In this document: positions 321 to 64,000 of the stretch, piece by piece | Layout of the letters: each line of letters begins with the position of its first letter | Position numbering within the stretch: position 1 is the first letter of the stretch | Origin: Candidatus Uhrbacteria bacterium | Lineage (GTDB): Bacteria; Patescibacteriota; Patescibacteriia; UBA9934 | Direction of reading: 5' to 3' | DNA: 64,000 nucleotides | Assembly: GCA_943359345.1 (NCBI GenBank) | Contig: CALRHE010000001.1 | Location: forward strand, 1,995 to 65,994 | Made by a program: the position numbers and the translations under genes | The notes under the pieces: model-generated | What the model was told of the DNA's origin: nothing | The model's database searches: none | The model's input: only the letters and a program-made list of their open reading frames with translations

Positions 321-415
321 TAACATTATAGCAAGAGATATTAGAGTTCACGGGTTGGATCTAATGACTACTTTCTAATAGCTGCTAATATCTAATTTTG
401 TAATAACTAATCCTT
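321..415 (+). repeat. MITE-like palindromic intergenic repeat, copy A (left end diverged or truncated)
   Basis: Shares the exact 23-mer CTGCTAATATCTAATTTTGTAAT (382-404) followed by (G/A)ACTAATCCTT with copies at 21261-21383 and 61740-61864; internal GGTTGGATCTAAT...TTTCTAA segment is also similar to copy C. Confidence 0.6.
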
Positions 416-460
416 TAAAGACCTCCCGATAGTAGTCCCCACCCTATCCCCTTCTCCCCC

Positions 461-7630: not shown

Positions 7631-8048
7631 TCACGTGATAAGCCGCTTGCAAGCACAGGAAAATTGGCAGGGTGATGTATAAACCCAACGCACCAATCAC
7701 CATAATCGCAATAATCATTAAACCAAAGCTACGACCCACAATTTGTACCAAGCGCATGAAAATACTGATCAAACGGCTCTGCCAGTCATGCTGACCAAAC
7801 ATGGGCACGAACATATTCTGGATCCAAACTCCAATAGCCATGTACTTGGCATAGCCTTTCAGAGTATCTGCGGCTCGCCGCAACATCAAAATCAACCCGC
7901 GGGAGTACCACCACACGGGAAACATGACTATATCCAGCAAAACGTCCTTAATCACCGCTGGCTGCATATGGAGGTAGTATACCTCGAGATCTTCCACACG
8001 ATAGACCCTTCGTCGACACTCAGGGTCTTGGAGACAACTGCCGGCCAT
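7605..8048 (-). CDS. Hypothetical small membrane protein
   Basis: ORF packed between tgt and the clp gene; hydrophobic C-terminal half (LMIIAIMVIGALGLYITLPIFLCL); no recognisable family. Confidence 0.35.
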   Translation of the reverse strand: MAGSCLQDPECRRRVYRVEDLEVYYLHMQPAVIKDVLLDIVMFPVWWYSRGLILMLRRAADTLKGYAKYMAIGVWIQNMFVPMFGQHDWQSRLISIFMRLVQIVGRSFGLMIIAIMVIGALGLYITLPIFLCLQAAYHVIGSFMYVS

Positions 8049-9856: not shown

Positions 9857-9954
9857 AGTCGGTGAGACCCTGAATGAATATGAGGGTCTAGAAAACTGGG
9901 AATGGAAGGCCTTAAATAACCGTTGCACTAGACCCTTCGCCTGCGCTCAGGGTT

Positions 9955-11618: not shown

Positions 11619-11693
11619 GCAGGAGTAGTTCAGTGGTAGAACATTTGCTTCCCAAGCAAAGGGTCGCGGGTTCGAATCCCGTCTCCTGCTCCA
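11619..11693 (+). tRNA. tRNA-Gly (anticodon CCC)
   Basis: Cloverleaf read by hand: acceptor GCAGGAG/CTCCTGC, D-arm GTTC-AGTGGTA-GAAC, anticodon stem TTTGC/GCAAA with loop TTCCCAA, T-arm GCGGG-TTCGAAT-CCCGT, encoded CCA. Confidence 0.85.
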
Positions 11694-11696
11694 TGA

Positions 11697-11817
11697 GAAA
11701 ACCCATTTAAACAGCTGACTACGTTGTCGCCGACCTCCGTCGGCCTCACCGTATTGCATATACGCCTCGGCCTTACTCGGTCGGACTCCTAGTAGCCAAC
11801 TGTTTAAATGGGTTTTC
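11697..11817 (+). ncRNA. Candidate structured RNA or palindromic element: about 120-nt rod-like stem-loop closed by an 18-bp perfect helix, between tRNA-Gly and tRNA-Thr
   Basis: GAAAACCCATTTAAACAG (11697-11714) pairs perfectly with CTGTTTAAATGGGTTTTC (11800-11817); interior has nested hairpins (GCCGAC-CTCC-GTCGGC; CCGACC...GGTCGG). Identity unknown. Confidence 0.3.
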
Positions 11818-11942: not shown

Positions 11943-12018
11943 GCCATCTTAGCTCAGTTGGTAGAGCAATACTTTCGTAAAGTAGAGGTCCCGGGTTCGA
12001 ATCCCGGAGATGGCTCCA
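11943..12018 (+). tRNA. tRNA-Thr (anticodon CGT)
   Basis: Acceptor GCCATCT/AGATGGC, D-arm GCTC-AGTTGGTA-GAGC, anticodon loop TTCGTAA, T-arm CCGGG-TTCGAAT-CCCGG, encoded CCA. Confidence 0.85.
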
Positions 12019-14674: not shown

Positions 14675-14792
14675 AAGCGACTGTGATCGGCACCCGACCC
14701 TGAGCAGAGGCGAAGGGTCTAGCGGACGGTGAAAAGCCGTGCCGATTGATGGATCCTTCCTTACGTCATGATCTTGGAGCGTCCAGCTCGTT

Positions 14793-16247: not shown

Positions 16248-16295
16248 ATAACCCTAATAACTATTTTCGAATAGCTGCAGCCATTCCTTGCCTAG

Positions 16296-18902
16296 CTATG
16301 ATACCAGCACCTGCTTAGGCTTGCGAACGTCAAATAAGAACCAGGCTTTCCCGAGCTCGATCAAGATTATCTTGGCTAAAGTAATACCCGCCACGATGCC
16401 AATATCAAGGGGCCGTAAGCTAACAAAACCAAACAGCTCTTGGAGCTGCGGCATTACAAGCGGCGCAGCCAGCAAAACCAATCCCAAGGCTACGGCCAGC
16501 AACAATTGGGGATTTTTAAACGGCGGTAATTTCCAGAATGGGCGTCGCAAAGTGCGGAGTGGATAGATCGCCAATAACGAGTCTAGTCCAAGCGCCAAGA
16601 ACAGGATTGAACGTAAAAACTCGAGACTATAGCCCGCTTGATGCAACGGCACGTAAAGCAAGAGCAAGCCGAGAACAGCTATGCCGCCCGTAAAAATCAT
16701 CAAACGTCGCATGCCGTCCGTCACTATCTGCTCGTGCCGAGAACGTGGGGCCTCTTTCATAATGTCACGTTCACCGGGCTCGAAAGCCAGTGCTACGCTC
16801 GGTAAGCCGTCAGTCACCAGGTTGATCCACAAAATATGGAGCGGCGCAAATGGAACTGGTAAACCAAGCGCAAGTATGCCTGCAATCAAGGCTACCTCGC
16901 TCAACGAAAACGTCAGCAGATAAGCTACTACTTTGCGAATATTATCAAAGATAATCCGACCCTCACGAATAGCCGCCACAATCGAGCTCACATCGTTATC
17001 TAGAATCACCATGTCCGAGGTTTCTTTAGCAACCTCTGTACCGCTGCCCACGGCCACGCCGATATCCGCAGCTCTGAGCGCCGGCGCGTCGTTAACTCCG
17101 TCGCCAGTCATGGCTACTGAGTAACCAAGAGTTTGTAATGACTTGACGATGCGTAATTTGTGTTCAGGCAGCACACGCGCAAAAACAGACACGCGGCGCA
17201 AACGATCCAGGAACTGTTGCTCTTTCATAGCTTCGAGCTCACTCCCAAGCACAATGTTCTCGGGCTGCGTTGGCAAACCAAGCTCACGAGCAATGGCCGC
17301 AGCCGTGACGGGATGATCGCCGGTAATCATGACCACGCGCACACCAGCTTGGGTGGCCTGATCAACTGTCTCGCGGGCGTGCTCGCGCAGCGGATCACGC
17401 AAACCAACCAGGCCCACAGGCTTAAGGTCACCCAGTGTCTGAAGTGTAAAATTTCCAGATCCAGAAATAATTTTCTCAGCTAGTAAAATAACTCGTAAAC
17501 CCCGTCCCGTCATGTCCTCAAGTAAAGCTCTGTAAGCACGCTGCTGTTGGTCATCAAGGTCACACTTAACCAATAACACGTCGGGCGCGCCCATAACAAG
17601 CGCTCGCTCACGCCCACTCTCGCGAATTAGTTTAGCTGAATATTTTTTCTTGGAATCAAAGGGCAACTCGTCAATAACCTCTACTTGGCGTTCAAGCCTA
17701 TCCAGATATTCTAGCAAATATCGCATTATGGCCGTGTCAGTCAAAGAACCAGTTACAACTACTTGCCCTGAGCCGTCATCAACCTGCGCGGCGTTCACGG
17801 CGTACAAAGCCCGCAGCAAAGCTCGAGTCTTATCATTCGATCTGTCAGCCTCAACCAGCAGGGTTTCAGCTCGTAGCTCGGCCACAGTCATCTCGCCTGT
17901 AGTCAGGGTGCCGGTTTTATCGACGCACAAAATATTTACGCTACCAAGCGTCTCGGCAGCCACCAGACGGTGTACCAAGGCCCTACGCTTCAGCATATGC
18001 CGCATACCCACAGACAAAATCACAGTTACACTAATCAGCAAGCCTTCAGGTACGGCGGCTACCGCGAGCGCCGCCGAGGTCGAAAGCATATCCACAAATT
18101 CAATCCCCCGAGCTGCGCCCAGTAAAAAAATAAACGCCGAAGCTCCCAGCATGACCCAGACAAGTGAACGAGATAAGCGTAGTAGCTCGCGCTGGAGTGG
18201 CGTGGGCTGATTGGCAGTACCGACTACCATGGCGGTGACCTTACCAAATTCGGTCTGCTGCCCGGTCCCAATTACAACGGCTTCAGCCTTGCCCGAGACC
18301 ACTGTAGACCCCGCAAACACCATCGATAGCCGATCAGCCACACTCGCGTCTGACGACACCGGCTCAATCAACTTTGCCACTTCGTTCGACTCACCTGTAA
18401 GCGCTGACTCGTTGGTCGCAAAATCAAAGACTGACAATAACCGGGCGTCAGCCGTAATTTTGGCACCAGCTGCTAACAGCAATATATCTCCAGGCACAAT
18501 GTCTTCGGCAGCCAGACTTAGAGTCTTGCCGTCACGGCGCACATTAGCAAGCGACGGAAGAAAAGTTTTCAAAGCGTGTAAGGCTCGATCAGCCCGATAC
18601 TCCTGCACGAAGCCCATCAGTACGTTCACAGCTATGACCACGATCGTAAGCAACGAATCAGTCACCTTGCCAAGTATCAAACTCAAGGTCAAGGCAATCA
18701 TCAGCACCAGCATGAGTGGACTCCCAATCTGACGTACCAAAATACTCAGGGCTGAGGTAGGCTTCTCAACCTTGGGTTGATTACGCCCGTGTTCGTTAAG
18801 CCGACGCCTAGCCTCGTCGACCTTCAAGCCGTCTTTCGAGCTCCCCAACGCTAAAAGTACGTCTGGTGACGGCATGTGATGCCACGGCAATAGTTCCTGC
18901 AT
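16296..18902 (-). CDS. P-type cation-transporting ATPase (P2-type, Ca2+/Mg2+-ATPase-like)
   Basis: Phosphorylation motif CVDKTGTLTTGEMTV, hinge MTGDGVNDAPALRAADIGVAVG, TGES-like actuator loop, about 10 TM segments. Confidence 0.9.
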   Translation of the reverse strand: MQELLPWHHMPSPDVLLALGSSKDGLKVDEARRRLNEHGRNQPKVEKPTSALSILVRQIGSPLMLVLMIALTLSLILGKVTDSLLTIVVIAVNVLMGFVQEYRADRALHALKTFLPSLANVRRDGKTLSLAAEDIVPGDILLLAAGAKITADARLLSVFDFATNESALTGESNEVAKLIEPVSSDASVADRLSMVFAGSTVVSGKAEAVVIGTGQQTEFGKVTAMVVGTANQPTPLQRELLRLSRSLVWVMLGASAFIFLLGAARGIEFVDMLSTSAALAVAAVPEGLLISVTVILSVGMRHMLKRRALVHRLVAAETLGSVNILCVDKTGTLTTGEMTVAELRAETLLVEADRSNDKTRALLRALYAVNAAQVDDGSGQVVVTGSLTDTAIMRYLLEYLDRLERQVEVIDELPFDSKKKYSAKLIRESGRERALVMGAPDVLLVKCDLDDQQQRAYRALLEDMTGRGLRVILLAEKIISGSGNFTLQTLGDLKPVGLVGLRDPLREHARETVDQATQAGVRVVMITGDHPVTAAAIARELGLPTQPENIVLGSELEAMKEQQFLDRLRRVSVFARVLPEHKLRIVKSLQTLGYSVAMTGDGVNDAPALRAADIGVAVGSGTEVAKETSDMVILDNDVSSIVAAIREGRIIFDNIRKVVAYLLTFSLSEVALIAGILALGLPVPFAPLHILWINLVTDGLPSVALAFEPGERDIMKEAPRSRHEQIVTDGMRRLMIFTGGIAVLGLLLLYVPLHQAGYSLEFLRSILFLALGLDSLLAIYPLRTLRRPFWKLPPFKNPQLLLAVALGLVLLAAPLVMPQLQELFGFVSLRPLDIGIVAGITLAKIILIELGKAWFLFDVRKPKQVLVS

Positions 18903-20143: not shown

Positions 20144-21235
20144 TTATATCAACATCGATGTTTCTGTCGGCTGCAGCAAAGCCATGCAATCGTGCACAAT
20201 GCGTTCGTCAGCATTTAAAGGGAATAGGCCACGAATGTTGTGCGTCAATTGGTCACGTCGTTTCTGATTGTCCAGGACTCGGTCAATCGCCTGCATCAGT
20301 GTCTGCGGTGTTAAATAGGTGACAATTTCGGCCGCGTCGCGGTCTGCTAAAGCCTGAGCGTTAGCAATTTGATGTGAGCCCGGAATCGGAATCAAAACCG
20401 TTGGCTTCCCAAGCGCAGCTAGCTCTGCAATCGTGCCCATGCCGGCACGAGCCACGACCACGTCAGCGACTGCATAGGCATCAGCCATGCCTTCGTTCAA
20501 AAACTCTACAGCCACATAGTTCTCACCGGCCTGCGTGAGCGAGGCCAGCATCTTACCTTTGCCGGTAATATGCAGCACGTTGGCCTTGTTTAAAAGTTCA
20601 GGCGCCAGAATTGACATCATTTCATTAATCTTGGTGGCACCCGTCCCGCCACCCATAACCAGCACCGTCGGCTTGTTTGCTGCAAAAGCATAACGCTCAC
20701 GAGCCATTTGCTGCTCACCAACTTTGACAAACTTACGCGCCATCGCACCCACGAGCTCAGTTTTTTTGGCAGAAAAACTCGGCAGCGACTCTGACCAAGT
20801 CACGCTCACCCTGGTAGCCACGGTGGCCATGAGCTTGTTGGCTAGCCCAGCTACAACGTCAAGTTGATGTACCCAAATAGGGATACCTTTAAGCCGTGCC
20901 ATCCAGACTACTGGCAAACTCACGTAAGCACCGGCCGTGATGACGATGTCGGGTTGAATCTTTCCAAGCAAACTAAAAGCCTGCAGGCAACTCCAAAATA
21001 ACAATAATGGTACCATCGGCACTTTCCACAAACGCGTACGATCAAACTTGGGCGCGCGTAAAGGGTAAAAATCGATTTTAGCGGCTTCGACTAAAACTTT
21101 TTCTGGTCCAGACCGAGTCCCGATCCAGGAGATTTTGACGTCTGAATCACGTTTACGCCACTCAGCCACAACCGCAAGTAAAGGGGTCACCGGACCCAGA
21201 GTACCTCCGCCAGTCATGAGGACGTGATGTGCCAT
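20144..21235 (-). CDS. murG: Undecaprenyldiphospho-muramoylpentapeptide beta-N-acetylglucosaminyltransferase MurG
   Basis: GT28 N-terminal MTGGGTLGPVTP, C-terminal MGGGTGATKIN plus donor-binding region; dcw context. Confidence 0.9.
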   Translation of the reverse strand: MAHHVLMTGGGTLGPVTPLLAVVAEWRKRDSDVKISWIGTRSGPEKVLVEAAKIDFYPLRAPKFDRTRLWKVPMVPLLLFWSCLQAFSLLGKIQPDIVITAGAYVSLPVVWMARLKGIPIWVHQLDVVAGLANKLMATVATRVSVTWSESLPSFSAKKTELVGAMARKFVKVGEQQMARERYAFAANKPTVLVMGGGTGATKINEMMSILAPELLNKANVLHITGKGKMLASLTQAGENYVAVEFLNEGMADAYAVADVVVARAGMGTIAELAALGKPTVLIPIPGSHQIANAQALADRDAAEIVTYLTPQTLMQAIDRVLDNQKRRDQLTHNIRGLFPLNADERIVHDCMALLQPTETSMLI

Positions 21236-21260
21236 AACGCTTCAACCAGAATACTACGGA

Positions 21261-21383
21261 TTAGAAATTAGGTGTTAGTCATTAGCAGCTATTAGAAAAG
21301 AGTAATTAGATCCGACCCGTAAGCATCTAATATCTACTTCTCAAATTACTGCTAATATCTAATTTTGTAATGACTATTCCTTA
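21261..21383 (+). repeat. MITE-like palindromic intergenic repeat, copy B (between ftsW stop and murG start)
   Basis: TTAGAAATTA...ATTAGCAGCTATTAGAAAAG...CTGCTAATATCTAATTTTGTAATGACTATTCCTTA; right 23-mer (21349-21371) identical to copies A and C, left TIR partly diverged. Confidence 0.65.
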
Positions 21384-22486
21384 TGTCTAACACCCGACAC
21401 ATTCAATACTACACCAACCGCGGTCAGTGAAATAGCCAAAGCCGTACCACCATAACTGACAAACGGCAGCGGTACACCGGTAATCGGCATGAGTCCGACC
21501 ATGGCGCCAATGTTTACAAAGGCTTGAATCCCCAACCAGGCCATAATCCCGATCACCAGATAACGACCGAAGCTGTCAGGGGCAAGATCAGCAATCTTGA
21601 ATCCGCGGAACAAGCAAGCAACGTAGAACAAAATAAAAGCACTCACCAACACAAAACCCATTTCTTCCGCCATAACCGCAAAAATTGAATCGCCAGCCAC
21701 TTCAGGCAAATATTGAAACTTCTGGAGGCTGTGTCCGTAACCACGACCAAATAAGCCACCTGAACCAATTGAGAGCAGCGCTTGGTTGATGTGATAACCA
21801 ACTCCAAGCGGATCAAGTTCAGGGTGCAAGAACGTTAAAACACGGTCGGCGCGATACGGAGAAAATTTAATCAAGGCCGCTAAAGTTCCAACCCCAACAA
21901 CACCAAGTCCTAGCAAATGATGCAAAGGGCCACCAGCTATAAAATAAACAGTAAAGGCTGTCAGCACAATGATACCTAGACTGCCAGTGTCAGGCTGGAG
22001 GATCAGCAGAGTCGCTATGATTCCAAGCACCGTAAGAAACGGCGCTAGGCCTTCAGCTACGGTTTTGAGCTCATGACGCGAACGCTTTTCAAGCCAGGCA
22101 GCCAGATAGATCAAAAACGTGAGCTTCACAAGTTCGGAGGGCTGAAATGAAAAGCTGCCAATCCCAATCCAGCTGCGCGAGGTTCCAAACTCAGCACCTA
22201 TGCCTGGAATAAAGACGAGAATGAGTAGAAAAATTGAAAGCGCCAACATGTGCGGCGCCAGGTAACGCAATTTTTCGTACGGAACCCGCATCGCCACCAG
22301 GCACCCAATCACGCCCGGCAACAGGCCAAAAATCAACTGATGCTTTAAAAAATAATAACCATCATCAAAACGATCAAAGCCCATGGGCCACGAGGCTGAG
22401 GCCAACATGACAAGCCCAATAGCCGTCAAACCAAAGACTAGGGCTAAAAAGGTGCGGTCCAGATAAAAACCCCCACGGTTTGTCAT
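21374..22486 (-). CDS. ftsW: SEDS-family peptidoglycan glycosyltransferase FtsW/RodA
   Basis: 10-TM SEDS protein in dcw context. Start taken at the internal ATG (MTNRGGFYLDRTF...) at 22486, because the longer ORF to 22567 would overlap mraY by 76 nt. Confidence 0.85.
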   Translation of the reverse strand: MTNRGGFYLDRTFLALVFGLTAIGLVMLASASWPMGFDRFDDGYYFLKHQLIFGLLPGVIGCLVAMRVPYEKLRYLAPHMLALSIFLLILVFIPGIGAEFGTSRSWIGIGSFSFQPSELVKLTFLIYLAAWLEKRSRHELKTVAEGLAPFLTVLGIIATLLILQPDTGSLGIIVLTAFTVYFIAGGPLHHLLGLGVVGVGTLAALIKFSPYRADRVLTFLHPELDPLGVGYHINQALLSIGSGGLFGRGYGHSLQKFQYLPEVAGDSIFAVMAEEMGFVLVSAFILFYVACLFRGFKIADLAPDSFGRYLVIGIMAWLGIQAFVNIGAMVGLMPITGVPLPFVSYGGTALAISLTAVGVVLNVSGVRHKE

Positions 22487-57677: not shown

Positions 57678-57704
57678 GGCGTCAGTATACCAAAAATGCA
57701 CGAA

Positions 57705-57739
57705 GGCCCAGCCTCTCCCCACGCGGGAGTGACTGGGCC
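57705..57739 (-). terminator. Terminator hairpin at the left edge of the high-GC island
   Basis: GGCCCAG-CCT-CTCCC...GGGAG-TGA-CTGGGCC, followed on the minus strand by a T-rich tract; lies only about 25 nt from the start of the O-antigen-ligase-like gene. Confidence 0.5.
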
Positions 57740-57746
57740 CAAGAAA

Positions 57747-58481
57747 CTACGCTGGCAAGCAGTCGAGGTCGCTGCCATCGCAGTCAAAGTCGACAGGCTC
57801 CGCTTCACATTCGCCAAGCGGGGCTGCGGGGTAGACATCAGCTCGCGTGTCGTTGCAGTCACGCGGATCGTTGTACTCGTCCCCGTCGCCGTTCTGGTCG
57901 GCCAGGATGAAACTCGCCGACGGCTTGTCGCACTGCCGGCTGTCGATAGCCTCGTTCCCGAACAAATCCTCGTCCAGGTCCTGAATCCAGAGCAGCTTGG
58001 CGGTGACATTGCTGTCCCAGTCATCCGGCTGGGCATCACAATCTTCGTCCACGTCATCCGGGTCACAGACCTCGGGAGCGCCAGGATGAACGTTGGCGAG
58101 CACGTCATCACAATCGCCAGGCAAGCTGGCGTCATCGCAAGCAAACTCATGCTCGCAGTAGCCGTCGCCATCGTTGTCGATGACGGTCTGGTCCACGTAC
58201 GGACCGGTGTCCGTATCTGGCGGCGTGGCCGAATCGGTCTCACCCGTGGAACCCGAGTCAACGTACGGCGGCGTGGCCGAATCGGTCTCCTCCGCGGTTC
58301 CCGAGTCAGGGTAAACGTACACAATCTCAGTCGGCATCTCTACTGCCGGCGGCGGCGCACAGCCAGCCAAGGTCAGCCAAATGAAGCCGAAGGGGCTAAG
58401 CAACTTGTTCATGTTTCCTCCAAGGAAAGAACCCACCCCTAGCATAATCCGCAAGCGCAGATCAGGTCTAGGGGTGACCAA
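57747..58481 (-). CDS. Lipoprotein with MopE-type Cys-rich putative metal-binding repeats (high-GC island gene 1)
   Basis: Lipobox LTLAGC after MNKLLSPFGFIW; two repeats of the DxDGDG...DCDD...PGAxExCDxxDxDCD pattern (Pfam Cu-binding_MopE-like, abundant in Myxococcota); codon usage strongly GC3-biased, unlike the rest of the window. Confidence 0.6.
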   Translation of the reverse strand: MVTPRPDLRLRIMLGVGSFLGGNMNKLLSPFGFIWLTLAGCAPPPAVEMPTEIVYVYPDSGTAEETDSATPPYVDSGSTGETDSATPPDTDTGPYVDQTVIDNDGDGYCEHEFACDDASLPGDCDDVLANVHPGAPEVCDPDDVDEDCDAQPDDWDSNVTAKLLWIQDLDEDLFGNEAIDSRQCDKPSASFILADQNGDGDEYNDPRDCNDTRADVYPAAPLGECEAEPVDFDCDGSDLDCLPA

Positions 58482-58561
58482 GCAAGATAATCTAAAAAAC
58501 GCATAAAAGCAAATCGACCCCCATCACCGCGTGAGCGATGTGGGGGTCGAAGAAGAAGACG

Positions 58562-59230
58562 CTACTGCCAGAACTCGTGCTCACACCCGCCCACGCCGTT
58601 GCTGACGGGCGTAGGCTCTGGGCCAGGTTCCCCATCCACGAGCACGGAGAACTCCCCGTGCTCGGTGAAGAGGTTGCCCTCGCAACTCCAGTGCGTGGCG
58701 CCGGCCGCGTCGGTGTAGCTCGCCGAGAGCTCCCAGCGGGAGCCGTCCGGCGTGCACACGTCATAAGCGGCGACCACGTCGTAGTTGACCACGGTAACCG
58801 TCATGCCAACGGGTGAACCCGTGTGAATGCCGGTGACGTACTCGAACCCACCGTACGTGGCCTCGAGCATGCCGGACAAGGTCACCATGACCGTACCGAC
58901 CGGCACGGTGTAGGTGATGGTCACCCGGGACTCGTCGCCCCAGCACTCGTCGTCGGACAGGGCTACGCCGGTATCCTCAGGCTCGGTCGAACCGTGCCCG
59001 GTGGTGACCGGCTCGCCGGCAGTGTCCTCGGGCTCGGTCGGATCGTCGGTGGTGACCGGCTCAGTCGGATCGACCGGCTCGAGTGCACCACCTCCGGGCT
59101 GGCCGAAGGCCGGAGAGTCGGAGCTGTCGCCCCGCTCCGGGAGGGTGGTGACCACCGGCTCGCTGCCTGGGTCGTTGGGCATCCGCTCCACGCCGCACGC
59201 GGCGAGGGTAACGAAAAACATGGAACGCAT
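58562..59230 (-). CDS. Lipoprotein, unknown function (island gene 2); start at the MRSMFFVTLAAC Met
   Basis: Lipobox TLAAC; acidic Pro/Thr/Glu linker then Cys-containing globular domain; terminator-like hairpin CGACCCCCATC...GATGTGGGGGTCG downstream (58505-58545). Confidence 0.55.
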   Translation of the reverse strand: MRSMFFVTLAACGVERMPNDPGSEPVVTTLPERGDSSDSPAFGQPGGGALEPVDPTEPVTTDDPTEPEDTAGEPVTTGHGSTEPEDTGVALSDDECWGDESRVTITYTVPVGTVMVTLSGMLEATYGGFEYVTGIHTGSPVGMTVTVVNYDVVAAYDVCTPDGSRWELSASYTDAAGATHWSCEGNLFTEHGEFSVLVDGEPGPEPTPVSNGVGGCEHEFWQ

Positions 59231-59502
59231 CGTATCCTCCAGGAAAGTCGCAAGACAGGTACTGCCAACCCGAAATTGGGTTATGCGATGCCGTGCCTCA
59301 ATCGGAAAGTTGGGTGCTTTCACGACATACAACTATAACAAAAATTAGCTTAAAAGTCAAGGCGCTATCAGTCAAAAATCAACAAATCATTGAGTTATTT
59401 CAAATAAAATTCATACCTAAACGCAAAGCCGACCCCCAACGCAGAAGCGTAGGAGGTCGGAGAGGCCGTTTAGCGTCCAGAGGGACGCAAGGTGGCCAAG
59501 AC

Positions 59503-60123
59503 CTAGAGGCAGGACTCGTCGGGCGGGGCGATGCCCTGGGTGAGCGGGAGGACAATGCCGTCCCGCACCTCCCACAGGTAGTGGGTGGACTCGCGGCTGC
59601 CCTCGGGACAGCCGGCGCCATCCAGGTGGTGGACGACGTACTGCTCGTTGTCCCAGGACGTGAGCCCCAGACCAACGTCCTGCCAGCCCGCGGCCCCGTA
59701 GGCCTCGAAGCTACCGGCATCGACGGCGACCACCTGGTACAGGCTGTCGCGCATCTGCCGGAAGGCCCAGCCTACGCGGACGTCCTCGACCACGTAGGGC
59801 ACAAGCGGTGCCCACGGATCGAACCAGGTGTTGGCTGCATCCGGCTCGTAGACGCCACCGCCGTAACCCACCAGCCACAGGTTGGTGGTGACGGCCGGCA
59901 AGCCGACGTTGTCGAAGATCACGAGGTACGGCTCGGAGCCGTCCTCGGTACCGAAGCCGAAGCTCTGGTAGGTGTCTTCGACACCGTCGTTGTTGCTGTC
60001 GCCGTCGGGCCCGGTGGGCTCGACCGCTGTCTGCTGCGGCGCGGCGCCGGTGTCGGCGGCGAGGTGACGATCTTCGACGCAGGCACCCATGGTGGCCGCG
60101 ACACAAACGAACAAGGAACGCAT
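59503..60123 (-). CDS. Lipoprotein, unknown function (island gene 3)
   Basis: MRSLFVCVAATMGAC lipobox; chosen over overlapping Arg-rich alternative frames because of the signal peptide. Confidence 0.5.
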   Translation of the reverse strand: MRSLFVCVAATMGACVEDRHLAADTGAAPQQTAVEPTGPDGDSNNDGVEDTYQSFGFGTEDGSEPYLVIFDNVGLPAVTTNLWLVGYGGGVYEPDAANTWFDPWAPLVPYVVEDVRVGWAFRQMRDSLYQVVAVDAGSFEAYGAAGWQDVGLGLTSWDNEQYVVHHLDGAGCPEGSRESTHYLWEVRDGIVLPLTQGIAPPDESCL

Positions 60124-60411
60124 GCTGTCTCCAGTGGCCCGAAGGCCGGTTGATTGTGAGCCGGTAACTACTCATGTTCCAGTCCCGAAGGACGAGACTG
60201 ATACACCGGTGGCTCTGATCCGGCGATGACAGTCTGCTAAGTGACGTAGATAAACTATCTACTATCTACCTACCGAACTATCATCGCTTGACCTTTTATT
60301 AAAGACGGAGGTTGTAAAAGTATTTCAGGGAAGAAGTGTCTGAGCGGGGCAGGTTCCAGGCAGAAGCCATGAAACCCGCCCCACTCACGTTTGATCGGTA
60401 GACCTGTTGGC

Positions 60412-61284
60412 CTACTTGGACCGGCGGCGATCACCGAGTCCGATTCGGAGCTCGGTGTGAAGGCCTCCGGACCAGAAGCGGTCCGGGTCACGCACGAACC
60501 CGCCGTAGCCCACGAAGGGCATGACGAGAACCCGCATCTCCGCTTGGCTCCCACGCTGGGGAACGTCCAGACGGAACATGGGACCCATGCCCAGGTCGCC
60601 GCCGATGTAGCGGGCGGCCCAGGTGTTGTCTTCCACCAGGAGGTCACGCCCCCCGATGTTCAGCTGGGTTCCGAGACCGACTTGGTCGGCGACCATGAGG
60701 CCGGCGTCCAGCCCACCGCCGTAGCTGCGGGAGGTGAGGGACCCGGTCCCGATGACGGCCCTGGCACCAAAGTACGGGGTGCCCTGGGCATCCTCCGCGT
60801 ACATGGTCCAAAGACCCAGCTGGACCTCGCCGCCCCAGCTGACCATGGGGTCAGGGGACAACAGTCCGGCCTGCACCGGCACCTGCCCGACGTTTCCGCC
60901 GGCCAGGAAGCCGATGTGGAAGAGCTCGTTGCCCTTCTCTGGCACTGGTACGGGCGGCGCTGCCACCGGTGCGTGAACGGTGATGTTCCGCACGACCGCT
61001 GCTGGCGTCGGCTCGACGGCCGGAAGCTCGGGTGCGGGCTCGGGCGCGGGTTCCACGACCGGAGTCATGGGTTCCGGCTCGGGCGTCGGCTCAACAGGCA
61101 CAGGGACCTGATCGACAACGGCCGGGGGCACGACAGGCGCTGCCGGTGCGGGCGTCGAGCTGCGCTTGGCGCAGGACCGACAGCCCTCGTCAATCGGTCG
61201 CGGGTCAGGGTTTGTCCAGTCATCAGCTTGCGCCGACACTGGGATCAAGGCCGCAATGGCGGCCAACAGATTGAAAGGACGCAT
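60412..61284 (-). CDS. Secreted protein with Pro-rich linker and Gly-rich C-terminal beta-domain (island gene 4)
   Basis: Signal peptide MRPFNLLAAIAALIPVSAQA; (P-E/V-P)n linker; C-terminal domain with alternating Gly/aromatic pattern ending in F/Y-rich strands (possible beta-barrel). Confidence 0.5.
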   Translation of the reverse strand: MRPFNLLAAIAALIPVSAQADDWTNPDPRPIDEGCRSCAKRSSTPAPAAPVVPPAVVDQVPVPVEPTPEPEPMTPVVEPAPEPAPELPAVEPTPAAVVRNITVHAPVAAPPVPVPEKGNELFHIGFLAGGNVGQVPVQAGLLSPDPMVSWGGEVQLGLWTMYAEDAQGTPYFGARAVIGTGSLTSRSYGGGLDAGLMVADQVGLGTQLNIGGRDLLVEDNTWAARYIGGDLGMGPMFRLDVPQRGSQAEMRVLVMPFVGYGGFVRDPDRFWSGGLHTELRIGLGDRRRSK

Positions 61285-61739
61285 TGGTGTCTCCTATTCA
61301 AGCCTGACGGCTTGGGAATGGGGTGGGCTCGCTTCCGAGTCCCGGTTGTTTTTTTCAGAGCCCGGGACTCGGCGCTCCAAGGGCCTTGCGTTATCCGTCA
61401 TTGGAGGAGGACGACAGATAACTCAAGTGCCCTTGGAAAGTCGATCCCTAGGCTAACTTCACCTGAAAAGAACTGAGTAATCTACCAGATTTTTGCCAAA
61501 AAGTCAAGACCAGGCACGACTGAGAGTAACAAAAAATGGCCTATATTAGCCAATATTACTCATGCAAACAATTCATCCGCAGGCTTTCTTGACGCCCCCT
61601 TCGCTGATTGCTAAAATTCTGCTTACAAAATCCCCTCCGGGGACCCGATGGAACGGTTGTGACGCCTCCTCCTCGTTGCAACTCGTGACCGTCGGGTCTT
61701 CAGAGAGGGTTTTTTGATTGTTTTAAAGTGTATATAGGC

Positions 61740-61864
61740 TTAGAAATTACAAAATTAGATATTAGCAGCTATTAGAGAAGTAGATATTAGACTTCTGACG
61801 GATTGGATCTAATTACTATTTTCTAAGTTCTGCTAATATCTAATTTTGTAATGACTAATCCTTA
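61740..61864 (+). repeat. MITE-like palindromic repeat, copy C (complete; 23-bp perfect terminal inverted repeats)
   Basis: ATTACAAAATTAGATATTAGCAG (61746-61768) is the exact reverse complement of CTGCTAATATCTAATTTTGTAAT (61830-61852); about 60-bp core; overlaps the stop of the CpsC-like gene and lies about 260 nt right of the high-GC island edge. Confidence 0.7.
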
Positions 61865-62506
61865 AACCTCTGTGTGGACTAACTGATGCCTCCGACGCAA
61901 ACGATCTGATTGGATAAATACGAAAGCTGCCCCACCTAAAGCACCCAAGAACAAACCCGACACAGCATTAACTGGAATATTTGGTCGCACTGGATAACGC
62001 GAATTCAAGGGATCATCAACCACTTGTACGGTAATATTTCCGCCAGAGGTATAGGTCCAACCTTGGGTAGTGATTACAAAAGCTACTGCTTGAGCTATCT
62101 CTTGAGCTTGCTCAACATCAACGTGATAAGCCTTAATGGCTAGCAGACCACTGCTCCGTGACACCGAAGCAGAAATAGTTTTTTCCCATTGCTTACGTTC
62201 TTTAATGGGATCGTCTGGAAAATAAGTGTCGTCGATCAGAAAACCTGAATTGATAACCTTGTCAAAAAAAGTCGAAGTATAAACAATGCTAGACAAATCA
62301 TCAGCGATACGTTCAGCCGAACGACTAGCAGTGTAAGCGTCCACCACGCCTAATTCTTGGGTGATCAAAATCCGGGTGGTTGAACTGTATTCAAGAGGTC
62401 GCAAAAGTGATAACAAAACTGCGAGTACCAATCCACACGACGAAAACAAAAGCACAGTTGGCCAGGCCTGTAGGAGTGGTGTTATTTGTGTGTACTTATC
62501 GGTCAT
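61862..62506 (-). CDS. Polysaccharide co-polymerase / chain-length determinant (CpsC/Wzz-like, two TM)
   Basis: N-terminal TM, extracytoplasmic domain, C-terminal TM with the PNIPVNAVSGLFLGALGGAAFVF motif (P-x2-P-x4-G-x-x-LG pattern of Wzz/CpsC proteins). Confidence 0.5.
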   Translation of the reverse strand: MTDKYTQITPLLQAWPTVLLFSSCGLVLAVLLSLLRPLEYSSTTRILITQELGVVDAYTASRSAERIADDLSSIVYTSTFFDKVINSGFLIDDTYFPDDPIKERKQWEKTISASVSRSSGLLAIKAYHVDVEQAQEIAQAVAFVITTQGWTYTSGGNITVQVVDDPLNSRYPVRPNIPVNAVSGLFLGALGGAAFVFIQSDRLRRRHQLVHTEV

Positions 62507-62513
62507 GTTGAGA

Positions 62514-63632
62514 TTAGTATATCAAACTGCTGGCATCAGCGAGCACGACTGAAAGTTCAATCAAGGCTCCACCCCGCAACACGTTCAATCGAACTGTTTG
62601 ACCAGGATCATAAGTAGCTAATAACTCAGCTAAAGATGTATCCGCGGTTATGGCTGCGTCATCTACGGCAGTTATAATGTCATGATTCAAGACTCCGGCC
62701 TCCCCAGCAGGACCCCGGGCTGGCACTGGTAAGCGACCGCTCGGAGCCACAACTAATGCCCCCGCACTCAGGCCCTGACGAAGATCAGGATCAAGATTAT
62801 AAACATCTGACAAATCAATTACATATGCTCCCAAGGCTGCATGCATAACTGTGTTGGCACGCAAAGTTTCCTGAATAAATGCCAAGCCGTGCTGCAACGG
62901 AGTAGCCAAACCATCAGCTGTCATAAAACCCAGCAAGTCACCACTGGCCGAAATCATCGGGCCCGTATAGTCACCGTTTAAAACTAATTTCCAAGCATCA
63001 ACATAATCTTCGGCTGGCTGAGGACCAGACAACAAGCTGTGTTTAACCACTTCAAGCGTGGTTGGCAATAACCCCAGGGCGCCATTCAACACAAACAAGC
63101 TATCACCGCTACGTACGTCTGCACTTGAACCAAAACCAACCGGGGTCAAGTTACTAGCGTGACCCAATTTTATAAGCACAAATGGGGACAGTTCATCGCT
63201 AACTATGTTTTCAATGCCATAACGTTCTCCCCTCACCCAAACCTGATTACTAACGAAGGGATTTTGACCGGCTGAGATTTCATCATAAGTGGTAAGTATC
63301 CAACCGTTGGCACTAACCACTACTCCTACACCTACAGCTTCAACCGGACCCACCCACTTACTGGGTACCGAGCTATCATCAACAGTCTTCATGATTACTG
63401 CCAAACTCCGACTTTGAGTTTCGCGCACTTTAGCTACAGCCTCGGCGTAATCTTGTGGATTGAGATTAGGTTTGCGCGGTTCAAGAGCTGTAAAACCTCT
63501 ATCGCCCAGCAAAGCAGCGGCGTAGCTTTCAAGCGTAGTTGAAGTAATCACACTAGCCAAAACGCCGGCACCAGCACCTACAACGAGTGAGGCCAGTACG
63601 GTAAGCACCGCGGTGCGTTGAGGGTTTTTCAT
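62514..63632 (-). CDS. HtrA/DegP-like trypsin-fold domain plus PDZ protein, apparently lacking catalytic His and Ser (predicted pseudo-protease)
   Basis: N-terminal TM; trypsin-like region aligns GWILTTYDEI (His position substituted) and NGDYTGPMISASGDLLGF to the GNSGGP...NGELIGI block with Ser replaced by Tyr; clear C-terminal PDZ (ALVVAPSG...VRLNVLRGG). Start taken at MKNPQRT (63632) to avoid a 130-nt overlap. Confidence 0.45.
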   Translation of the reverse strand: MKNPQRTAVLTVLASLVVGAGAGVLASVITSTTLESYAAALLGDRGFTALEPRKPNLNPQDYAEAVAKVRETQSRSLAVIMKTVDDSSVPSKWVGPVEAVGVGVVVSANGWILTTYDEISAGQNPFVSNQVWVRGERYGIENIVSDELSPFVLIKLGHASNLTPVGFGSSADVRSGDSLFVLNGALGLLPTTLEVVKHSLLSGPQPAEDYVDAWKLVLNGDYTGPMISASGDLLGFMTADGLATPLQHGLAFIQETLRANTVMHAALGAYVIDLSDVYNLDPDLRQGLSAGALVVAPSGRLPVPARGPAGEAGVLNHDIITAVDDAAITADTSLAELLATYDPGQTVRLNVLRGGALIELSVVLADASSLIY

Positions 63633-63634
63633 AT

Positions 63635-63985
63635 TTATGTCCAGGTAGCCGTACCAAAGATAAGCGCGAGCAGCATACACCCAATCAAGGCGTAGCGCCG
63701 AACAATCGCCGGCGTTAATTTTTCTAACACGTGTGCGCGTGAAATACCTAAATACACGTACCAACAGACTGTGAAAACCGCGGCGTGTGTTACAAAGCTG
63801 GTTGGCAACATGCTTAACGATACGTAAACTTCGGTCATCACAATCGCCCCAGTAACTGCAAACAAAATTCCAGTCTCAAAACCAATTTTACTAACCCAAA
63901 AGACCGCCACAGTGGCTAGTAAAACAATTAAGAAAGTAGCTATAGCTGGGATCCACAGGGGTAATTCCAAAAACAGTTGAGCCAT
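63635..63985 (-). CDS. Hypothetical 4-TM membrane protein
   Basis: 116 aa, hydrophobic throughout; start ATG at 63985 near the window end. Confidence 0.35.
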   Translation of the reverse strand: MAQLFLELPLWIPAIATFLIVLLATVAVFWVSKIGFETGILFAVTGAIVMTEVYVSLSMLPTSFVTHAAVFTVCWYVYLGISRAHVLEKLTPAIVRRYALIGCMLLALIFGTATWT

Positions 63986-64000
63986 GTAAGCGCTGCCCGT

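Follow-up and report, generated by a model that had tools for sequence, protein, structure and literature searches.

The stretch analysed here, called the window below, comprises 64,000 nucleotides of a contig from a Candidatus Uhrbacteria bacterium (Patescibacteriota). Four of its short intergenic spacers hold a copy of one repeat, and copies are found solely in spacers of this kind. Copy A is found where an amino-acid permease gene (start 315, minus strand) and dnaB diverge, in the spacer that separates them. Copy B lies between ftsW and murG in the dcw cluster, and copy C beside a high-GC island, between the stop of a gene for 214 aa and a terminator-like hairpin at 61629-61715. These three placements had been given correctly in the original prediction. 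Copy D, a decayed remnant, occupies the 48-bp spacer from the stop codon of a P-type ATPase gene (16296-16298) to the ATG of a Mur-ligase gene (16247). Gene starts were taken at ATG 491 for dnaB and at ATG 63632. The analysis covered about 64 kb from this genome and, from a sister strain (ERZ27280310/ERR5863117), about 30 kb; the two strains are about 92-95% identical over the dcw region. Further copies were reached through exact-protein look-ups of the neighbouring genes in strains and relatives. The exact proteins of the window are also encoded on an ENA contig (ERZ27280223, 64,756 bp), a 120,103-bp NCBI contig and several Logan/ENA contigs.

That these copies form a family is clear from their occurrence. 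The 23-mer CTGCTAATATCTAATTTTGTAAT has four exact matches in the window, against 0.00 expected from 100 shuffles. This bears out the claim that a dispersed, palindromic, non-coding family is united by a 23-mer, which copies A, B and C share. A family profile added the fourth, decayed copy. The core CTAATATCTAAT, with at most one mismatch, is matched seven times, every time within loci A, B or C. These are also the only loci in the whole 64 kb where CTAAT/ATTAG pentamers number at least five per 130 bp. Their GC content (0.28-0.33) is among the lowest in a window that averages about 0.50. The full element measures about 125-150 bp at 28-33% GC, and lengths across copies run from 94 to 152 bp. 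Small size (about 50-500 bp) and AT-richness, two features by which MITEs are recognised, are therefore present. So is dispersal, with four sites in 64 kb and a second subtype in a sister strain. Pairwise identity between copies is 84-86%, a further sign that the repeat is real. One observation that counts against a MITE is that copies which differ by 14-16% give no sign of a recent burst.

Table 1. Positions of the repeat copies and their parts in the window.
Feature	Position	Strand	Remarks
23-mer CTGCTAATATCTAATTTTGTAAT, all matches	382-404(+), 21349-21371(+), 61746-61768(-), 61830-61852(+)		Exact matches
Copy A	331-424	+	Truncated, about 94 bp, centre and one arm; limits from the L036 empty-site alignment
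Copy A, family-profile match	325-428		E 5.6e-24
Copy A, 23-mer arm core	382-404	+	Exact match
Copy D	16254-16290	-	Decayed single-arm remnant; found by the family profile
Copy B	21243-21392	-	Full length; family-profile match E 5.6e-38
Copy B, palindrome core	21261-21383		Repeat search
Copy B, 23-mer arm core	21349-21371	+	Exact match
Copy C	61716-61867	+	Full length, about 152 bp; limits are those of the region that differs between alleles, flanks identical
Copy C, profile match	61718-61876		E 2.4e-42
Copy C, left arm	61736-61779	+	Holds the 23-mer on the minus strand, 61746-61768
Copy C, right arm	61819-61862	+	Holds the 23-mer at 61830-61852

The element consists of two inverted arms flanking a short asymmetric centre. 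In copy C the arms stand 39 nt apart and are 84% complementary over a 44-nt palindrome, inside which 23 nt match perfectly. Copy C had been credited with perfect 23-bp terminal inverted repeats. The perfection stands, but the repeats are subterminal in an element that reaches further on both sides (Table 1). A second family member at the same site, the V2 allele described below, carries perfect arms of 28 nt. Inverted repeats of the terminal or subterminal kind that mark a MITE are thus found in both. The left ends of copies A and B had been described as diverged, which proves to be a misreading. Copy A is a truncation that begins in the centre, with one whole arm absent. Copy B is an inverted copy, opposite in orientation to A and C (its best match to C is the reverse complement), and in one of its arms the units described next are arranged differently.

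The arms are built as arrays of degenerate 7-bp units, four to six per arm, that read CTAATnn on one arm and nnATTAG on the other. Examples are CTAATAT-CTAATTT, the series CTAATGA-CTAACAC-CTAATTT-CTAATCC in copy B and ATATTAG-GAATTAG-ATATTAG in the V2 allele. Runs of 3 or 4 consecutive units are present. The periodicity is also evident without reference to a motif: a lag of 7 gives the highest autocorrelation in every copy, 0.42-0.52 against a background of about 0.27, and for four full copies the value is reached by at most 1 in 2000 shuffles. This heptamer-array build is a new detail and the distinctive architecture of the family. It has a consequence for translation. As 7 equals 1 modulo 3, successive TAG/TAA triplets fall in all three frames, and each copy has 2-8 stops in each of the six frames and no ORF. 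The elements therefore have no coding capacity and, like MITEs in general, encode no transposase.

For copy C the predicted folds of the two strands have energies of -46.7 and -51.5 kcal/mol with z about -8 (-8.4 and -8.1), in keeping with the long hairpin that had been forecast for it. Two other alleles of the same site behave similarly (z -7.6 for C' and -7.0 for V2). Copy B is predicted to fold at -35.6 and -32.7 kcal/mol, the former with z -4.5. These predicted folds are long, three-tier hairpins. The truncated copy A is predicted to fold no better than its shuffles. When C, C', B and V2 are compared, 6 of 42 predicted pairs have changed on both sides yet are still paired, so the symmetry of the arms is maintained. 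Is it maintained in RNA or in DNA? Copies B and C have opposite orientations relative to transcription, the transcribed strand of copy C is the less stable of the two, and the strand that carries the G-U pairs varies from copy to copy. Together these facts point to symmetry as a DNA-level property, such as that of transposon ends, rather than to a strand-specific RNA structure.

The same facts bear on the idea that the copies are a multi-copy structured RNA gene, a riboswitch or an array of guide RNAs, for which the very stable predicted hairpins are the obvious argument. TIGR systems, which are common in CPR bacteria, would be one example; their arrays are tandem units of two alternating 8-12-nt repeats with variable spacers of about 9 nt, next to a Nop-domain tas gene (PMC12045711). 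The elements show no alternating repeats with 9-nt variable spacers. Each is a single palindrome of 7-nt units in which the positions that would be spacers are conserved between copies, and a TIGR array was rejected on these grounds. Pfam searches and gene tables gave no Nop-domain (Tas) gene in the window or the related loci. Nor is there a consistent orientation, promoter or terminator: inside the elements neither promoters nor intrinsic terminators are predicted beyond chance, and both strands fold equally well. In Rfam only three tRNAs of the window reach the gathering threshold; the elements fall below it, with generic miRNA-precursor matches for C and none for B. An RNA gene is therefore a very slim prospect.

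Insertion can be seen at site B. Copy B fills the ftsW-murG spacer, which is 138 bp long here (21236-21373). In three relatives with MurG identities of 81%, 80% and 86% (L028, a JGI contig and L035, respectively) the spacer is 10, 7 and 4 bp. The copy also overlaps the stop codon of ftsW (TAG, 21374-21376). FtsW ends in ...KQKS* in the empty-site relatives and in ...RHKE* here, and the final ftsW codons, AGA CAT AAG GAA TAG, resemble the terminus of the site-C element, AGG TTT AAG GAT TAG. From this resemblance it appears that the last ftsW codons and the stop have been replaced by an element terminus. The sister strain presents a third state. Its site B is a 20-bp spacer that starts AAGGAATAG-ATATTAC and retains only AAGGAATAGATATTAC, a terminus of 16-22 nt, and the 10-mer TAGATATTAC found there is identical to a terminus of the C' allele. 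This sequence is most simply read as a 16-22-nt remnant of an element, not as a virgin site. No terminator is predicted in the ftsW-murG spacer, which makes it plausible that copy B is co-transcribed with murG, as had been proposed.

Site A tells a similar story. The permease-dnaB spacer, 175 bp long in the window, is shorter in L029 (45 bp) and L036 (70 bp). The L036 sequence can be aligned on both flanks, with CATTATA on one side and CCCG(T/A)A on the other conserved, and this alignment fixes the limits of the insertion given in Table 1. With empty orthologous sites at both A and B, the two copies are insertions relative to the related genomes. At site D the comparison runs the other way. 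The sister strain has an intact single arm, AAAGGATTGGCTGAAGATATTACAAAATTAGATATTAGCAGCTATTAGAGAATAG, at 15446-15525 of L032 (nhmmer E 3.5e-10), and the window has that same arm with a 26-bp internal deletion. A separate observation concerns the neighbourhood of copies A and B: an exact 10-mer, AGCGTTATGG (leader, ATG and G), is found at 312-321 and at 21232-21241, before the permease gene and murG. It was considered as a possible part of the element and rejected. Relatives with empty sites carry the related ATCGTTATGG and GGTTATGG, so AGCGTTATGG is native leader and start context.

Site C holds different elements in different strains. Three alleles are found: C in the window, C' in L022 and L024, and V2 in L020, L021 and L023. 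C' is 94% identical to C, with different outer ends. V2 shares only about 60% identity with C, which it matches in length and in the CTAATATCTAAT core, and has perfect arms of its own. A comparison of the window with L020 gives about 73 differences within the limits of copy C, against 1 difference in the 1.4 kb of one flank and 0 in about 110 bp of the opposite flank. L023 has a flank that is 99.95% identical over 2.1 kb, yet its allele is V2. The TAA of the 214-aa gene (61862-61864) lies inside the terminus of copy C. The adjoining hairpin at 61629-61715 is long and GC-rich, has T-runs on both strands, lies between convergent genes and is likely to be a bidirectional terminator. It does not vary among the strains examined, though the element next to it is hypervariable.

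How might one element be swapped for another between identical flanks? It may have been exchanged alone, through excision and re-insertion or through ectopic conversion. Alternatively, a recent tract of inter-strain recombination may end at the heterologous element. The region 61900-64000 is about 99.9% identical to L020, L021 and L023, strains that are otherwise about 92-95% identical, and from this similarity it would seem to be a tract of recent recombination, with its left edge at element C. The unusual likeness between strains fits the recombination account of the swap. That the swap could be due to homologous recombination between strains, and not to excision and re-insertion, counts against a MITE.

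Taken over all sites, turnover is clear. Within the species, copies have been truncated or eroded to single arms or short termini, and one site holds a different family member. The insertion polymorphism that MITEs display is thus present, with A and B empty in relatives and remnants or a replacement in sister strains. The forecast of a mobile, MITE-like family is borne out in this respect, and the gain and loss of copies suggests mobility. Could the copies be artefacts or chimeras of a metagenome-assembled contig? Many contigs do break inside the element: at least eight, from six samples, end inside the arms (L005-L008, L023, L026, L111 and L112), as is expected of a repeat or palindrome. The filled junctions have nonetheless been assembled independently in at least five samples for B and at least three each for C and A, and different assemblers agree (ENA MEGAHIT, SPAdes and Logan). 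The chance that the copies are an artefact is negligible.

The next question is how the element would have moved. No convincing target-site duplication is definable at any of the four sites; copy A is truncated at one end and the sister B site is remnant-like. Direct repeats fade in older MITEs (PMC10969869). The flank TAATCCTTA, once put forward as a duplication, turned out to be part of the inverted repeat, with AGGNTTAG at the opposite end. Duplications of TA, TTAA and TAATCC were also considered and none suits all ends; TAATCC/AGGATTAG is itself part of the inverted repeat. An IS608-like insertion 3' of TTAC/ATTAC would suit the left junction at B. It too was rejected, as the right flank there is at odds with the sister strain. 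Pfam searches of called genes and ORFs, run on the window and on about 290 kb of related loci, detected neither a transposase nor any other recombinase, so the window is as free of transposases as had been stated. A parent IS with matching ends was likewise absent from the window and these loci.

Searches further afield returned no more copies. The family profile found none in the loci of more distant relatives (about 50 kb of non-redundant sequence). The 19-mer TGCTAATATCTAATTTTGT was matched 3 times among GTDB species genomes and 11 times among JGI metagenomes, collections without the host species, all of them single AT-rich chance matches with no palindrome. The degenerate arm pattern gave 68 single matches in IMG/VR, none extending past 20-33 nt. 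Nothing was returned by blastn against phage and plasmid collections.

With neither a definable duplication at the four sites nor a transposase in the window and related loci, one alternative gains some ground. The copies may be extragenic palindromes of the REP/BIME or SPRITE type, maintained by the host as hairpins that stabilise or punctuate mRNA, and spread or homogenised by recombination, gene conversion or a RAYT-type enzyme instead of IS-derived cut-and-paste. REP and BIME sequences are extragenic palindromes at gene ends in operons, have no target-site duplication, and are tolerated or domesticated by the host. Three of the four sites place the copy at, or within about 10 nt of, the stop codon of the upstream gene, in strings of co-oriented genes. 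Complementarity of the arms is kept by compensatory changes, and the different family members found between identical flanks at one site are what ectopic conversion could leave behind. The palindrome moreover covers almost the entire element and not just its termini, which suits the REP and ERIC types as well as it suits classic IS-derived MITEs. Other observations do not fit. Relatives have empty sites and sister strains eroded ones, so the copies are dispensable. They keep no constant orientation to transcription, and the strand that is transcribed does not fold better than the other. The hairpins lack a following T-run and are therefore not intrinsic terminators. REPs are also GC-rich, 20-40 nt long, present in hundreds of copies and accompanied by a RAYT gene, whereas these elements are AT-rich and far longer (about 150 bp), and no RAYT gene was seen in the window or related loci. 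Membership of the REP/BIME group proper was rejected on size, on a GC content of 28-33% and on the lack of a Y1/HUH transposase in the window. Host-maintained palindromes are thus an unlikely explanation, though one with several facts on its side.

A different alternative starts from the heptamers. Arrays of short units can also be sites for DNA- or RNA-binding proteins. Ribbon-helix-helix proteins such as omega of pSM19035 bind heptad arrays, and HutP binds UAG-N4 repeats on RNA. The copies could therefore be operators, centromere-like or nucleoid-protein sites on DNA, or UAG-N4 repeats opened by a HutP-like protein on RNA, serving as conditional regulators of dnaB, murG and their neighbours. 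The 7-nt periodicity is significant, runs of 3-4 units occur, V2 contains an exact UAG-N4-UAG-N4-UAG, and the copies adjoin replication and cell-division genes. Against this, close relatives and the sister strain lack the sites at these positions, and truncated copies live on. There is no HutP, TRAP or plausible cognate gene in the window, and the core 12-mer occurs nowhere else in the 64 kb. The periodicity itself is not decisive, as a transposase that binds several sites per end would give the same. Regulatory arrays are accordingly an improbable reading. What if such a protein and the hairpin acted together? In this hypothetical scenario, the inverted heptad arrays would be read by a specific protein, omega/ribbon-helix-helix-like on DNA or HutP-like on UAG-N4 RNA, which would open or lock a 55-60-bp hairpin at the stops and leaders of replication and cell-wall genes, and hairpin-templated repair would renew the symmetry. 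Such repair, if real, would yield different, internally perfect palindromes at one site in near-identical strains. The scenario as a whole is decidedly far-fetched.

The reading that is probably correct is that the copies are lineage-specific, non-autonomous, non-coding palindromic foldback elements, in function a MITE of the Correia/ERIC type, in an uncultured Patescibacteria bacterium. Small size, AT-richness, inverted repeats, lack of coding capacity, dispersed filled and empty sites, truncated derivatives and subtypes match the definition of a MITE (PMC10969869).

Correia and ERIC elements are among the closest known systems. The Correia elements (CREE/NEMIS) of Neisseria are transposase-less, intergenic elements of about 100-200 bp with inverted-repeat ends that are co-transcribed, form a long hairpin, vary between strains and fall into subtypes (PMC10969869, PMC2649163). 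The present family shares their size range, non-coding nature, inverted-repeat ends, intergenic placement, hairpin formation, presence or absence between strains, several subtypes and lack of a transposase of its own. The resemblance, by description, lies in architecture and behaviour. Several features set the two apart. No TA duplication is evident here, the arms are arrays of 7-bp units and are complementary over nearly the full element, neither an IHF site nor a promoter has been demonstrated, and the host is a member of the Patescibacteria with 4 sites in 64 kb. ERIC (or IRU) elements of enterobacteria, about 127 bp long, are of similar size and are likewise imperfect palindromes over their whole length, but their sequence and host are unrelated and, to our knowledge, a heptamer sub-structure has not been described for them. 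They too occupy intergenic regions that are transcribed, in many cases at gene 3' ends, and the ERIC hairpin alters the fate of the mRNA (PMC10969869). Their copy numbers range from 30 to more than 700, against 4 sites in 64 kb here.

For the heptamer arrays themselves there is another parallel. Foldback-type transposable elements have inverted arms built of tandem sub-repeats. The BrickBuilt elements of Porphyromonas, modular repeats listed among the MITEs (PMC10969869), share this build, and in both the length of an arm can change through gain or loss of units. The present family differs in its unit of 7 bp, its 4-6 units per arm and its lack of a known autonomous partner.

If the elements are MITEs, their life cycle might be as follows. 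Copies would be spread in trans by an enzyme encoded elsewhere that binds the repeated heptamers in both arms, and the enzyme's own element would carry the ends AAGGATTAG-N2-ATTACAAAATTAGATATTAG. After insertion, the element would be carried passively in host transcripts: the ftsW-murG mRNA in the case of copy B, the leader region of dnaB/permease in that of copy A and, for copy C, the 3' UTR of the 214-aa gene, ahead of the terminator-like hairpin. The transcript hairpin would have a stem of about 55-60 bp that starts at the stop codon. It could serve as a substrate for RNase III or block 3' exonucleases, and it could interfere with termination or coupling at the stop codon beside it. Such effects on RNA would follow the precedents of Correia, ERIC and REP elements, of which the first two are known to affect mRNA (PMC10969869), and by this analogy they seem plausible here. 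At the level of protein, TAG/TAA at 7-nt spacing puts stops in every frame, so that an insertion at a gene end would add almost no C-terminal extension. This near-harmlessness may explain why gene-end insertions are tolerated in a compact genome.

Genomes of Patescibacteria (CPR) are about 1 Mb in size and gene-dense, and are thought to be poor in repetitive DNA. A full-text literature search returned no description of MITEs in Patescibacteria or Saccharibacteria, only incidental co-mentions. Against this background the family would mean that small selfish palindromes colonise even the tight, conserved dcw operon, where the ftsW-murG spacer has gone from 4-10 to 138 bp. Essential genes seem to have had their last codons rewritten by the elements, whose turnover is visible between strains sharing 94-99.9% identity. 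Their combination of a hairpin with stops in every frame offers a natural example of a nearly harmless gene-end insertion. On the practical side, they are a cause of contig breaks in CPR metagenome assemblies, recurrently so for this organism, and they are useful as strain markers and as a handle for finding any enzyme that moves DNA in these genomes. The general picture of bacterial MITEs is unchanged.

The window holds other repeats and one unusual region. A second, unrelated repeat is a 26-nt GC-rich stem-loop, CTAGACCCTTCGCC-N-GCTCAGGGT, with the stem GACCCT/AGGGTC. Its three copies (8001-8027, 9928-9954 and 14697-14722), of which one has the inverted orientation, are placed at the ends of genes or close to them, and it may be a REP-like or terminator-type family. 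An inverted repeat of about 120 nt in total, with 39-nt arms that are 79% complementary, lies at 11697-11817 between tRNA-Gly (11619-11693) and tRNA-Thr (11943-12018). The high-GC island at 57700-61500 (GC 0.58-0.62 against 0.50) contains four tandem small ORFs of about 206-290 aa, rich in Pro, Gly, Asp and Thr, with N-termini like those of signal peptides or lipoproteins. The ORFs match no Pfam family in this contig; a 221-aa homologue in L021 has a weak match to Cu-binding_MopE. Strains differ far more in the island, where indels are numerous, than in the flanking 61.9-64.0 kb.
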